Origin: a virus
Lineage: Duplodnaviria; Heunggongvirae; Uroviricota; Caudoviricetes
Reading direction: 5' to 3' (one strand)
Length of the DNA: 10,224 nt
Virus record (IMG/VR): IMGVR_UViG_2526164649_000017
The translations under genes were made by a program, and so were the position numbers. Of this stretch, positions 5,696 to 8,995 are shown piece by piece; the first letter of the stretch is position 1; the number at the start of each line of letters is the position of its first letter. A model generated the notes under the pieces. That model saw nothing but the letters and a program-made list of their open reading frames with translations, was not told the DNA's origin and made no database searches.

Positions 5696-5875
5696 ATGTA
5701 CCAGATGGAAAAAATCACAACAGGTGTGTCATACACCACGTCAGCGGTGGGAACGGGCTACTGGTTCCTGCAGTTGCTGGACAGGGTTTCCCCGTCTCAG
5801 TGGGCGGCAATAGGCGTGCTGGGGAGTCTGCTGTTTGGGCTGCTGACATATCTGACTGAGGTGTACTGGCAATAG
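5696..5875 (+). pseudogene. S21-type class II holin, 3' end truncated by IS600 insertion
   Basis: GGGAG SD 7 nt before ATG 5696 and a second ATG at 5705 (dual-start MYQM, as in S21 MKSM). [51 protein letters not shown] is close to my recollection of S21; native sequence ends at 5856 and the frame runs into IS600 giving EVYWQ-stop. The ORF-track start 5651 is an upstream in-frame ATG without SD. Confidence 0.75.
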
Positions 5876-5899
5876 CGGACACTACCATTTGTTCTTTTT

Positions 5900-6718
5900 T
5901 TAAGCAGCCATCTGATGATATTTTTCCCTGAAGGCTGCCGGGGAGATATTCCCCAGACGAGAGTGACGACGCTGACGATTGTAGAAAATCTCAATGTATT
6001 CCCGTATTACTGAGATGGCTTCATCCCGGTTATTAAAACGATAGTGGCTCAGGCTCTCATTTTTCAGCGTTCCCCAGAAGCTTTCCATCGGAGCGTTGTC
6101 GTAACAGTTACCTTTACGCGACATTGATGTTTTCAGACCAGACTGCTCCTGTATGACCCGGTAATCGTATGCGCAGTACTGTGAACCTCGATCAGAGTGG
6201 TGGATTAGCCCGGCAGGTGGGCGCTGGCTCCTGAGCGCCATAAACAGGGCTTTACCTGTCAGCTCTTTTGTCATGCGCTCTCCCATGGCGTAGCCGACAA
6301 TTTCACACGTATAAACATCTTTGATGCCAGCGAGGTACAACCATCCCTCCTGTGTGGCAACATACGTCAGGTCCGCCACCCAGACCTGATTTGGTGCTGT
6401 AGGAGCGAACGTCTGGTTCAGCAGATTTGGCGCAACTGGCAGATTGTGGTTCGGGTTCGTAGTCGCTCTGAACTTGCGTTTCTGCTTACAGCGTAGCCTT
6501 AGCTCCTTACGAAGACGTGCCAGTCGGTCACGACCAACGATGATGCCATTCTCTGCCAGCTCCGTCTGGAGCCGCCGGGTTCCATATGTTTCGCGAGTGC
6601 GGATATGTGCCACCTTAATCTCCAGTTTTAGCCGCTCATCACTTTGTTTTCTGTCTGAGGGTTCATGCTGTACCCAGTTGTAATAACCGCTCCTGGATAC
6701 ACCAAATACCTGACACAT
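5900..6718 (-). CDS. IS600-like transposase OrfB (DDE integrase domain)
   Basis: 272-aa ORF, identical in protein sequence to the copy at 8133-8951; IS3-family catalytic-domain features; expressed in this family as an OrfAB fusion by -1 frameshifting. Confidence 0.85.
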   Translation of the reverse strand: MCQVFGVSRSGYYNWVQHEPSDRKQSDERLKLEIKVAHIRTRETYGTRRLQTELAENGIIVGRDRLARLRKELRLRCKQKRKFRATTNPNHNLPVAPNLLNQTFAPTAPNQVWVADLTYVATQEGWLYLAGIKDVYTCEIVGYAMGERMTKELTGKALFMALRSQRPPAGLIHHSDRGSQYCAYDYRVIQEQSGLKTSMSRKGNCYDNAPMESFWGTLKNESLSHYRFNNRDEAISVIREYIEIFYNRQRRHSRLGNISPAAFREKYHQMAA

Positions 6719-6753
6719 CGCTTCAATGGGAAATTGTTGTCGCCATTGTTCGA

Positions 6754-7056
6754 TTAACGCGTATTTTTCAGCGACTCCTGTGCAAAATACGCTGTTGCTT
6801 TTTTTAATATATCGCGCTCAAGGTGAGCTTCATTTAACGCCTTACGCAGTTGCAGAATTTCAGATTCCAGTTCAGCCACCGTGCGGGAACCAGGAGTACC
6901 GAGCCCTTTTCTGGCGGCGGTAACCCATTGTCCTAAAGTGCCTTCAGGAAGAGATAATCGGGAAGCGCCTTCACTGATCGAAAGTTGATTTTCAAGAACC
7001 GTTCTGACAGCTTCGGCTTTGAACTCTTTAGAGTAACGTTGGGTTTTTCTGCTCAT
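6754..7056 (-). CDS. IS600-like OrfA (HTH/leucine-zipper transposition regulator), intact
   Basis: 100-aa ORF MSRKTQRYSKEFKAEAVRTV...; ends shortly after the A7G slippery site (plus-strand CTTTTTTT 6798-6805). Confidence 0.85.
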   Translation of the reverse strand: MSRKTQRYSKEFKAEAVRTVLENQLSISEGASRLSLPEGTLGQWVTAARKGLGTPGSRTVAELESEILQLRKALNEAHLERDILKKATAYFAQESLKNTR

Positions 7057-7120
7057 TATTAGCTCCTTCTGATGCCATTCTATTTCAGGAAGGAGTGTCC
7101 GTTAAACTCAGGCTACCTCA

Positions 7121-7223
7121 GACATCAATCATCTGTTCTCCAATGACTAGTCTAAAAACTAGTATTAAGACTATCACTTAAATAAGTGATACTGGTTGTC
7201 TGGAGATTCAGGGGGCCAGTCTA
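7121..7223 (-). mobile_element. IS2 left-end fragment (about 103 bp incl. IRL), inverted
   Basis: Reverse complement reads TAGACTGGCCCCCTGAATCTCCAGACAACCAGTATCACTT...GGAGAACAGATGATTGATGTC, i.e. the IS2 left terminus through the first codons of insC; abuts IS600 copy A. Confidence 0.85.
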
Positions 7224-7729
7224 ATGATCATCAATGCATCTGTTGGAATTGCTTTGTTAAACAATAACGTCTGTACTAAATATCCTGCAAGGAAAGTCTG
7301 AATTAAACCGGAGTTACCCGCCTGACCAAAACGCAGCCCTGTTGCCAGCCAGAAGGATTTGCTCTGGAACATGCTACCAGCAGGTGCAGGTTTTGCTGTC
7401 GGTTGGTTGCTGTCGTTAACCTTCTCAAAGACCGGGCTTTCTTTCAGATTCATACGCAACCAGATAGCAAAGACCATCACGACAACGCTCGCCAGGAACG
7501 GTATACGCCATCCCCACGCCAGCAGTTCCTCTTTACTGAGAATGAAGAACATAAAGGCCCAGATTGCCGTTGCGCTTAAGGTGCCGCAGTTAGTTCCCAT
7601 AGCCACAAATGAGGAGATAATTCCGCGCTTACCTTTTGGCGCATATTCCGCCAGCATCGTACCGGCACCGGAAATTTCCGCACCTGCACCCAATCCCTGA
7701 ATAATACGCAGCGTCACCAGCAAGATGGG
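7224..7729 (-). pseudogene. MFS transporter fragment (metabolite:H+ symporter family-like), truncated at both ends
   Basis: About 168 in-frame codons with RIIQGLGAGAEISG and AEYAPKGKRG motifs resembling the MHS-family signature (compare ProP/KgtP/ShiA) and hydrophobic TM segments. N-terminal side cut by IS600 copy B, C-terminal side by the IS2 IRL. Confidence 0.7.
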
Positions 7730-7793
7730 TGAGGTAGCCTGAGTTTAACGGACACTCCTTCCTGAAATAGAATGGCATCAGAAGGAGCTAATA

Positions 7794-8097
7794 ATGAGCA
7801 GAAAAACCCAACGTTACTCTAAAGAGTTCAAAGCCGAAGCTGTCAGAACGGTTCTTGAAAATCAACTTTCGATCAGTGAAGGCGCTTCCCGATTATCTCC
7901 TTCCTGAAGGCACTTTAGGACAATGGGTTACCGCCGCCAGAAAAGGGCTCGGTACTCCTGGTTCCCGCACGGTGGCTGAACTGGAATCTGAAATTCTGCA
8001 ACTGCGTAAGGCGTTAAATGAAGCTCGCCTTGAGCGCGATATATTAAAAAAAGCAACAGCGTATTTTGCACAGGAGTCGCTGAAAAATACGCGTTAA
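7794..8097 (+). pseudogene. IS600-like orfA disrupted by a 1-bp insertion
   Basis: ATG at 7794 reads MSRKTQ...EGASRLSPS-stop because CTCCTTCC (7897-7904) has one more C than copy A (CTCTTCC). The 80-aa ORF in the track (7855-8097) is the out-of-frame remainder. Confidence 0.7.
8046..8053 (+). other. Programmed -1 ribosomal frameshift motif (A7G) of IS600-like element
   Basis: AAAAAAAG at the orfA/orfB overlap in copy B; the equivalent in copy A is plus-strand 6798-6805. IS3-family frameshifting is established knowledge. Confidence 0.6.
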
Positions 8098-8132
8098 TCG
8101 AACAATGGCGACAACAATTTCCCATTGAAGCG

Positions 8133-8951
8133 ATGTGTCAGGTATTTGGTGTATCCAGGAGCGGTTATTACAACTGGGTACAGCATGAACCCTCAGACAG
8201 AAAACAAAGTGATGAGCGGCTAAAACTGGAGATTAAGGTGGCACATATCCGCACTCGCGAAACATATGGAACCCGGCGGCTCCAGACGGAGCTGGCAGAG
8301 AATGGCATCATCGTTGGTCGTGACCGACTGGCACGTCTTCGTAAGGAGCTAAGGCTACGCTGTAAGCAGAAACGCAAGTTCAGAGCGACTACGAACCCGA
8401 ACCACAATCTGCCAGTTGCGCCAAATCTGCTGAACCAGACGTTCGCTCCTACAGCACCAAATCAGGTCTGGGTGGCGGACCTGACGTATGTTGCCACACA
8501 GGAGGGATGGTTGTACCTCGCTGGCATCAAAGATGTTTATACGTGTGAAATTGTCGGCTACGCCATGGGAGAGCGCATGACAAAAGAGCTGACAGGTAAA
8601 GCCCTGTTTATGGCGCTCAGGAGCCAGCGCCCACCTGCCGGGCTAATCCACCACTCTGATCGAGGTTCACAGTACTGCGCATACGATTACCGGGTCATAC
8701 AGGAGCAGTCTGGTCTGAAAACATCAATGTCGCGTAAAGGTAACTGTTACGACAACGCTCCGATGGAAAGCTTCTGGGGAACGCTGAAAAATGAGAGCCT
8801 GAGCCACTATCGTTTTAATAACCGGGATGAAGCCATCTCAGTAATACGGGAATACATTGAGATTTTCTACAATCGTCAGCGTCGTCACTCTCGTCTGGGG
8901 AATATCTCCCCGGCAGCCTTCAGGGAAAAATATCATCAGATGGCTGCTTAA
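8133..8951 (+). CDS. IS600-like transposase OrfB
   Basis: 272-aa ORF identical in protein sequence to the copy at 5900-6718. Confidence 0.85.
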   Translation: MCQVFGVSRSGYYNWVQHEPSDRKQSDERLKLEIKVAHIRTRETYGTRRLQTELAENGIIVGRDRLARLRKELRLRCKQKRKFRATTNPNHNLPVAPNLLNQTFAPTAPNQVWVADLTYVATQEGWLYLAGIKDVYTCEIVGYAMGERMTKELTGKALFMALRSQRPPAGLIHHSDRGSQYCAYDYRVIQEQSGLKTSMSRKGNCYDNAPMESFWGTLKNESLSHYRFNNRDEAISVIREYIEIFYNRQRRHSRLGNISPAAFREKYHQMAA

Positions 8952-8995
8952 AAAAGAACAAATGGTAGTGTCCGCTATTGCCAGTACACCTCAAG

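Follow-up and report, generated by a model that had tools for sequence, protein, structure and literature searches.

Programmed inversion switches, such as fimS with FimB/FimE and those served by the hin/gin/pin invertases, rely on short repeats and a dedicated site-specific recombinase, enclose a promoter or alternative gene ends between the repeats, and are found in both orientations. For IS26 and Tn4401, intramolecular transposition "in trans" is defined by a flank signature (He et al. 2015, PMC4471558). Copy-out-paste-in insertion sequences (IS) can produce deletions and inversions from the IR-IR junctions of tandem dimers, and such dimers have been described for IS30 and also for IS3-family members and relatives of this class (IS2, IS3, IS150, and IS911; PMC9333248). 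In Shigella flexneri strain 8401, inversion 4 was attributed to IS600 (PMC1550401), and IS600 is among the five IS that have expanded in Shigella, together with IS1, IS2, IS4, and IS911 (PMC7373316). Here, we analyzed a stretch of 10,224 bases (the window) from the draft genome of Shigella flexneri 2850-71, catalogued as the Caudoviricetes-classed record IMGVR_UViG_2526164649_000017. It contains two inverted IS600 copies that bracket a 609-bp segment. With a probability of roughly 0.5, we read this locus as the relic of past IS activity in an eroding part of the S. flexneri chromosome, produced by a one-step IS600 duplicative inversion. The kind of event is already known.

A repeat search of the window found inverted arms at 5857–7126 and 7724–8993. 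Gapped alignment placed the copies at 5857–7120 (copy A, minus strand) and 7730–8993 (copy B, plus strand), each 1264 bp in length; they agree at 1262 of 1265 aligned positions (99.76%). This confirmed the preliminary description of two inverted, ~99.8% identical copies of 1264 bp with their IRR ends outside. An extension of the repeat by six bases (7121–7126 and 7724–7729) was rejected as a chance match of 4/6 bases. The inner ends of the pair are IRL, on the orfA side, the outer ends are IRR, and the two copies are transcribed divergently. Copy A has its IRR tip at 5857 and its IRL tip at 7120, with orfB at 5900–6718 and orfA at 6754–7056; in copy B, orfA starts at 7794 and orfB occupies 8133–8951.

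Both copies carry the tips TGAGGT...ACCTCA, and their 1264 bp fit the IS600 length of ~1264 bp and its imperfect terminal inverted repeats (TG...CA). Full-length identity to E. coli elements annotated as IS600 was 98–99.8%, and the elements whose RefSeq annotation reads [quoted passage not shown] match it end to end at 99% or more. The orfA product has 100 aa (HTH_Tnp_1) and the orfB product 272 aa (HTH_21, rve, rve_3, rve_2); the two frames stand at −1 to one another, with a slippery A-run motif, TTAAAAAAAG, at the end of orfA. Judged by its sequence, the element is IS600 itself, a member of the IS3 family, rather than merely IS600-like; the earlier wording had the kinship right but was too weak. 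The 3-bp direct target duplication expected at a simple IS600 insertion was seen at neither copy. Copy B is flanked by GGG and AGA. Copy A is flanked by GAC and GAC, a match that is coincidental because the ancestral flanks, seen in the S. flexneri genomes L021 (CP026871.1) and L027 (CP007037.1), are GAC and CCC. A simple insertion of copy A with a GAC duplication was rejected, as removal of the copy would fuse the holin gene to the interior of IS2 and the flanks in L021 and L027 differ. Each copy lies at a junction created by rearrangement, and the missing 3-bp duplication casts no doubt on their identity as IS600.

One of the three differences between the copies is a substitution (A at 6824 vs. 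G at 8027). The other two are single-base indels in homopolymers: copy B has an extra C at 7899 and copy A an extra A/T at 5901. When all 10,224 bases of the window are compared with the complete genome CP024470.1, the only differences are three single-base homopolymer indels; there are no substitutions. Both A/B indels are private to the 2850-71 draft and absent from the long assemblies. The extra C at 7899 reduces orfA of copy B to a 37-aa stub; we rejected this frameshift as the mark of an inactive copy, and it is probably a homopolymer sequencing error, because the indels are private to the draft. In L005 and L006, two of three other S. flexneri assemblies that carry the pair, copies A and B are separated by one substitution only. 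In the third, L007, copy B is identical to the reference copy, and copy A bears an extra IS and has G at the substitution site. Within a genome, A and B are 0–1 substitution apart, compared with the 2–6 sites that separate copy B from neighboring IS600 copies; the distance from copy B is 5–6 sites for the IS600 that occupies the orthologous place in L021 and L027.

The left side of the locus is a remnant of a Qin-like lambdoid prophage. The 5′ part of a class II (S) holin gene lies at 5696–5856 on the plus strand (Pfam Phage_holin_2_1 on the called product) and ends at ...LLTYL(T), where the IRR tip of copy A interrupts it (junction J1). In relatives L008, L020, and L022, the holin is intact (71 aa) and lysis and terminase genes come next; J1 is identical in L005–L007, L019, L021, and L027. 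Copy A is the older, resident copy at the junction of a prophage-to-ydfJ deletion, and copy B is the newer one. Past junction J2, at the IRL tip of copy A, sequence comparison identified IS2 nt 1–103, the IRL end of IS2, at 7121–7223 on the minus strand, inverted relative to the remaining IS2. It is followed at 7224–7729, also on the minus strand, by an internal fragment of ydfJ (506 bp, nt 352–856 as mapped on intact ydfJ), inverted relative to the ydfJ 3′ part. ydfJ encodes an MHS-family MFS transporter; its fragment is 99.6% identical to E. coli ydfJ and matches the NCBIfam metabolite/H+ symporter profile at positions 98–271 of 400. The IRL tip of copy B at 7730 adjoins ydfJ nt 352 (J3), and its IRR tip at 8993 adjoins IS2 nt 90 (J4). 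From there, IS2 nt 90–1320 fills 8994–10224 on the plus strand, with orfA from 8996 and orfB from 9319 onward (NCBIfam "IS2 repressor TnpA", 3.5e-83). The window ends 11 bp short of the right tip of IS2, which is followed in the source contig by ydfJ nt 853 to its end and ydfI. The ydfJ 3′ part thus begins just past the window end, and in L001 it runs from nt 853 to the stop codon on the plus strand after IS2. The plus-strand order to the right of the segment is IS2 90–1331, ydfJ 853 to end, ydfI, ydfZ, ydfG, and dcp. The 609-bp segment itself (7121–7729) consists of the 103-bp IS2 end and the 506-bp ydfJ fragment; read either way round, it has neither an intact gene nor a complete IS. The IS2 end may carry a promoter belonging to IS2, which would face no intact gene whichever way the segment lies.

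IS2 nt 1–103 and ydfJ nt 352–856 are both reversed relative to their other halves further right, which shows that the segment has been inverted from the ancestral order. When the parts are rejoined, reconstructed IS2 nt 1–297 aligns without a break to IS2 copies of E. coli at 100% identity. The preliminary description had proposed a comparison with related genomes for the ancestral arrangement, and L021 and L027 indeed carry an uninverted precursor. Both have the exact J1 and a single 1264-bp IS600 whose IRL is followed by CCCATCTTG..., i.e., ydfJ nt 352 in forward orientation, and their ydfJ nt-856 site is intact. This arrangement of truncated holin, one IS600, and forward ydfJ corresponds to the predicted uninverted ancestor. 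An intermediate with IS2 at ydfJ 856 and a single IS600 was found in no genome examined. L005, L006, and L007 are megabase-scale assemblies of other S. flexneri strains that differ by SNPs and other IS events, and they share all five window junctions in the same order and orientation. Together with the 2850-71 draft, all four pair-bearing assemblies (4/4) show one orientation. Homologous recombination between IS600 copies has also acted here: L019 and L027 differ by an inversion between a different inverted IS600 pair, with break points inside the IS homology, and just upstream of the locus lies a deletion between direct IS600 copies. The window junctions were absent from 5,426 E. coli genomes, in which complete genomes gave only split, non-contiguous matches, and gave zero matches in GTDB species representatives and JGI metagenomes. 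An exact look-up of the fusion ORFs returned only the same S. flexneri lineage and one short Logan contig.

The first two steps of the history we propose can be followed in the genomes compared. An S. flexneri ancestor carried one IS600 at the deletion junction that joins the truncated Qin-like holin to ydfJ nt 352, and IS2 then inserted into ydfJ at nt 856 in the 2850-71 lineage. For the third step, the architecture is observed and the chemistry is our reconstruction from the final sequence. Resident copy A would have attacked the neighboring IS2 at a distance of 609 bp along its own DNA molecule, with its IRL 3′ end joining the bottom strand after IS2 nt 103 and its IRR 3′ end joining the top strand ahead of IS2 nt 90. 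Replication and repair would have yielded together the inverted copy B, the inversion of ydfJ 352–856 with IS2 1–103, and a 14-bp inverted duplication. This is what intramolecular transposition with inversion classically produces. Possible routes are the IR-IR junction of a tandem IS dimer or two uncoupled single-end strand transfers. The resulting structure would have no function; it adds to the damage in IS2 and in ydfJ, which had been truncated before, and has been inherited unchanged.

Apart from its length, the 14-bp inverted duplication is what marks a local duplicative IS600 inversion. The inner flank of copy A (7121–7134, minus strand, adjoining the IRL tip at J2) reads GACATCAATCATCT and is the reverse complement of the outer flank of copy B (8994–9007, plus strand), AGATGATTGATGTC, both corresponding to IS2 nt 90–103. 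The 14-mer is present only once in native IS2. Both new junctions fall exactly at IS600 tips, and the other flank of the old copy is unchanged, J1 being the same as in L021 and L027. The repeat is placed as expected for intramolecular transposition with inversion, with one arm on the inner side of the old copy and the other on the outer side of the new one. In length it departs from such a product, with 14 bp against the 3 bp typical of IS600. Among three independent E. coli IS600 insertion sites, two had a 3-bp duplication (GTG/GTG and GAC/GAC), and the IS911-like insertion in L007 is flanked by CTG/CTG. Three of the expanded IS thereby meet at this locus, namely IS2, IS600, and, in L007, the IS911-like element. 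We found no described precedent for a 14-bp stagger, which is unexpected from concerted IS3-family integration, and our literature search found no report of a long IS600 duplication or of this locus. The stagger suggests that the IS600 ends were joined in separate, non-concerted step(s). Tentatively, the duplication might be the record of a non-canonical IS600 reaction in which the ends were transferred separately to a nearby target, within a few hundred bp, in the same molecule, although we consider this less likely than not. Separate end transfer would allow duplicative inversion without a free circle and without a fixed 3-bp stagger.

Several other readings of the locus were considered and rejected. 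A canonical 3-bp insertion at IS2 nt 101–103 or 90–92 followed by recombination leaves 11 bp over, and a pre-existing 11-bp tandem duplication in IS2 cannot yield the observed ends. Template switching by microhomology was set aside because the new junctions lie exactly at the IS600 tips. Had copy B been the older copy, with the holin gene as target, GTC would be predicted at its inner side, where it is absent. A search for an IR-like target in IS2 gave no significant similarity among four tests; the best match, between the IS600 IRR subterminal region and IS2 nt 84–103, had an uncorrected p of ~0.03 among these four.

The final architecture is the same for a one-step transpositional inversion and for a nearby insertion followed by RecA inversion. 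The two-step account, which we regard as quite possible without favoring it, holds that an IS600 circle from copy A (or another copy) inserted inverted into IS2 and that RecA-dependent recombination between A and B then flipped the 609 bp once, after which the arrangement was fixed. It yields the architecture and flank pattern exactly as observed, it draws on copy-out-paste-in, the accepted IS3-family pathway (PMC9333248), and the L019 vs. L027 inversion between inverted IS600 copies at the same locus, as well as the homologous-recombination deletion upstream, provides examples of its second step. Against this, it needs two events where one is enough, concerted circle insertion predicts a duplication of 3 bp and not 14, and the uninverted intermediate is absent from the four assemblies. 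The preliminary description had pointed to recombination between the two copies, and to a potentially invertible unit. Such recombination is seen here for a different IS600 pair but not for A and B, and the segment is indeed inverted compared with the L021/L027 ancestor, whereas the present pair shows one orientation with identical junctions. That description had also named a single orientation, with the same fixed arrangement in relatives, as the observation that would speak against it, and this is what the assemblies show, in a small sample of four.

A segment that still flips between the 1264-bp repeats, giving mixed populations and possibly a phenotypic consequence, is improbable. RecA can act on near-identical 1.26-kb inverted repeats separated by 609 bp, recombination between IS600 copies has been recorded close by, and four assemblies of the same orientation exclude a 50:50 equilibrium only weakly (chance ~1 in 8). 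Even so, all four agree, the same copy keeps the A/G difference at IS600 nt 297 in three assemblies with no erasure by gene conversion, and a flip would restore no intact gene or full-length IS and leave the IRR|IS2 junction on the right untouched. No tyrosine or serine recombinase was recognized by a family scan of the ten largest ORFs and Pfam marks on called genes, which showed only the DDE transposases of IS600 and IS2. Movement of the whole 3137-bp unit into the site as a composite transposon (IS600, cargo, IS600) is very improbable. Two complete IS600 copies do bracket a short segment, and the composite geometry with IRR outside, noted earlier, stands; as a history it fails, since the outer flanks are GAC and AGA without duplication, the outer ends are IRR/IRR, and both flanks and the "cargo" are ancestral local sequence (prophage on the left; IS2, the ydfJ 3′ part, and ydfI on the right). 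The unit is also known at the ancestral locus only, its junctions being absent from the E. coli genomes, GTDB representatives, and JGI metagenomes searched. Least credible of all is an artefact of assembling an IS-rich draft. Homopolymer indel errors do occur in the source draft; the earlier doubt on this score can be dismissed because the five junctions and their order recur in the three long assemblies L005, L006, and L007. The rearrangement scar is ordinary and apparently fixed, and is neither a genetic switch nor a moved transposon.

The locus is one more case of Shigella IS expansion eroding prophages and metabolic genes and has little wider weight. A deletion, IS2, and an IS600 inversion have all struck ydfJ, and IS600 has in turn inactivated IS2. 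It offers a worked example in which ancestral and derived states are both present in public genomes, along with a warning that identical 3-bp flanks, such as GAC/GAC at copy A, may match by chance. For research on IS3-family transposition, the 14-bp inverted duplication is a minor mechanistic curiosity. If separate end transfer were general, some of the many inverted IS pairs in Shigella that lack target site duplications would be direct products of transposition and not of RecA.

Compared with the fimS and hin/gin/pin switches, the locus is alike in having a DNA segment bracketed by inverted repeats, and differs in that no recombinase was recognized, no alternative coding ends are present, and no second orientation was seen in four assemblies. 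The IS-dimer IR-IR route (PMC9333248), open to an IS with the mechanism of IS600, gives a recA-independent adjacent inversion ending in two inverted copies; no dimer intermediate is visible here, however, and that route predicts a canonical short duplication. The resemblance to IS26 and Tn4401 "in trans" (PMC4471558) extends to copies in opposite orientation, inverted intervening DNA, a target repeat at an inner and an outer flank, and another IS split into inverted parts (ISSwi1 there, IS2 here). IS26 and the Tn3 family are true replicative (cointegrate-type) elements with a canonical repeat of 8 or 5 bp, whereas IS600 is a copy-out-paste-in IS3-family element and its repeat here is 14 bp instead of 3. 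The IS-mediated inversions of S. flexneri (PMC1550401) share the organism, the IS, and the general outcome; those inversions are large, lie between distant copies, and are ascribed to homologous recombination, whereas the one described here spans 609 bp and has transposition-type flanks.

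Two IS600 elements form a long inverted repeat in the window, copy A at 5857-7120 on the minus strand and copy B at 7730-8993 on the plus strand, each 1264 bp long and identical at 1262 of 1265 positions in a gapped alignment. Both show the IS3-family layout, with an orfA of 100 aa and an orfB of 272 aa (DDE integrase fold), and share 98-99.8% full-length identity with E. coli elements annotated as IS600. The gapped alignment bore out the preliminary description of their ends, with IRL inside and IRR outside in each copy. Comparison of all 10,224 bases with the complete genome CP024470.1 gave 0 substitutions and three single-base homopolymer indels (5655, 7899 and 8949), which suggests sequencing errors in the Shigella flexneri 2850-71 draft, whose contig AKMV01000024.1 was identified as the source of the window by exact look-up of a fusion ORF. 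Two of these indels are the ones setting B apart from A, and one produces an apparent orfA frameshift in copy B. The frameshift is most likely a draft error, because the indel is absent from CP024470.1 and the two copies in the S. flexneri assemblies L005 and L006 differ by only one substitution, at IS600 nt 297 (copy A of a third assembly, L007, has G there, not A). Within one genome A and B differ at 0-1 site, compared with 2-6 differences for neighbouring IS600 copies and 5-6 for the orthologous copy in the related genomes L021 (CP026871.1) and L027 (CP007037.1). This near identity to each other supports A and B as sister copies.

The 609-bp segment between them (7121-7729) is not a unit. 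It consists of the first 103 bp of IS2 (IRL end; 7121-7223, minus) and nt 352-856 from the interior of ydfJ, which encodes an MFS transporter (7224-7729, minus). IS2 resumes from its nt 90 onward to the right of copy B, from 8994 on the plus strand, and the window ends 11 bp short of its right tip. Past IS2, the source contig continues in E. coli order with ydfJ from nt 853 to the stop codon, ydfI, ydfZ, a GntR regulator, ydfG and dcp. When the reverse complement of 7121-7223 was joined to 9008 onward, the reconstruction matched E. coli IS2 copies at 100% as a single piece. Together with the strands of the IS2 and ydfJ pieces, this gives an ancestral order with ydfJ(352-856), IS2 and ydfJ(853-end) all in plus orientation, against which the segment between the IS600 copies is inverted. 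The IS2 insertion in ydfJ has ATCAT on its left and ATCAG on its right, so that four of the five expected duplicated bases agree (window 7220-7228; source contig 14527-14536); the mismatched T beside the IRL tip of IS2 may have arisen by mutation or been carried over from a junction. Contigs of ~550-600 bp that run from ydfJ nt ~355 to ~940-950 without IS2 at nt 856 recur in many short-read assemblies of S. flexneri (P0017, P0019, P0029), which suggests that IS600 (at nt 352) and a different repeat (near nt 950) border ydfJ in other lineages.

Relatives showing one or the other of the two states were found by look-up of the prophage Q protein and a 53-aa prophage protein. L021 and L027 contain the exact junction of the truncated holin gene with IRR, a single 1264-bp IS600, and then IRL followed by forward-oriented ydfJ at nt 352 (CCCATCTTG...), with the nt-856 site uninterrupted. 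This arrangement is the predicted ancestor, prior to IS2 insertion. All five window junctions, in the same order and orientation, were present in L005, L006 and L007 (two NCTC S. flexneri assemblies and CP024470.1; 4.76-4.83 Mb each). Two SNPs in the window region set L005 apart, and L005 and L007 are without one of two direct upstream IS600 copies: L004 and L006 have two copies ~1.5 kb apart at 2728-6708, whereas L005 and L007 have a single IS600 with the outer flanks of both at 5445-6708, an IS600-IS600 deletion (or the reverse) that is polymorphic among close strains. Copy A of L007 (13383-15898) carries a 1249-bp IS911-like insert after IS600 nt 632, with ends TGAAGTGGCACACTG...CCACTTCA and a canonical 3-bp direct repeat, CTG. 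These differences mark the three strains as distinct. The same junctions occur in distinct strains; therefore, the A/B structure is real and inherited, and it is found in one orientation only.

The outer flank of copy A is a truncated holin gene in a Qin-like prophage remnant, which encodes Rem, DUF968, RusA, Q antiterminator, an IraM/PmrD-like protein, DUF1737 and holin. The gene matching the IraM anti-adapter family (111 aa; 4606-4941, minus; NCBIfam 4.7e-48; Pfam PmrD) is conserved across many E. coli and Shigella lambdoid prophages. The preliminary description had offered the A/B pair as a possible invertible segment or composite transposon. The flip holds as history, and recombination between inverted IS600 copies does happen at this locus, with another pair: in L019 (CP182555.1, 1-12262) the 6.6-kb prophage remnant, bounded by copy A on one side and on the other by an IS600 upstream of relB that lacks its 5' part, is inverted relative to L027 (1-12333). 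Since the break points lie within shared IS600 sequence, this is a homologous-recombination flip. The A/B pair itself gave no sign of an active or functional switch, with one orientation in four of four assemblies, no site-specific recombinase recognised among the ten largest ORFs and the called genes, and only gene debris inside; a flip leaves the IRR|IS2 junction untouched, so no intact gene would change. The composite transposon reading fell away, as there is no flanking duplication, every part comes from local ancestral sequence, and the A/B junctions were not found in 5,426 E. coli genomes, GTDB species representatives or JGI metagenomes.

The inner flank of copy A (7121-7134, GACATCAATCATCT) and the outer flank of copy B (8994-9007, AGATGATTGATGTC) are mutual reverse complements; these 14 bp are IS2 nt 90-103, present once in native IS2. 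Both new junctions lie exactly at IS600 tips, so transposase would have made them, cutting the top strand of IS2 between nt 89 and 90 and its bottom strand between nt 103 and 104, with a 14-bp 5' stagger. Three routes lead to this architecture: an IS600 circle pasted in nearby and then RecA inversion, intramolecular attack from the IR-IR junction of tandemly joined IS copies (an IS dimer), or the resident copy's own two ends attacking the target directly. Our preferred reading is a single intramolecular step whose end transfers were uncoupled, since it needs only one event and tolerates a non-standard stagger; the sequence is also compatible with insertion followed by recombination. The dimer route is known in copy-out-paste-in elements, and dimers are reported for IS3-family members (PMC9333248). 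Concerted versions of all three predict the canonical 3-bp repeat, which two independent insertions of IS600 in E. coli do show (GTG/GTG and GAC/GAC); the repeat here has 14 bp. This 14-bp inverted target duplication is the sole unusual detail, of interest chiefly to transposition specialists.

GAC adjoins the IS600 tips on both sides of copy A (5854-5856 and 7121-7123) and recurs as the 3-bp duplication around an unrelated IS600 insertion in E. coli (L030). It may hint at a target preference, in a sample far too small for a conclusion; as a 3-bp duplication of copy A, GAC/GAC was rejected as a coincidental match. The subterminal IRR sequence AGAACAAATGGTAGTGTC (IS600 nt 1226-1243; 8955-8972) weakly resembles AGAACAGATGATTGATGTC in the target region (IS2 nt 84-103; shuffle p ~0.03, uncorrected), probably by chance.

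The A/B locus is an ordinary rearrangement scar. IS-mediated inversions in S. flexneri, IS600-associated ones included, have long been known (PMC1550401), and IS600, IS2 and IS911 are among five IS expanded in all Shigella (PMC7373316). The old flank is retained on one side of the old copy, the new copy is inverted with ydfJ nt 352 as the inner flank of copy B, the intervening DNA is inverted, and the target repeat, in inverted orientation, adjoins one copy on its inner side and the other on its outer side. These four elements are the textbook pattern left by intramolecular transposition with inversion, for which IS26 and Tn4401 are documented cases (PMC4471558).
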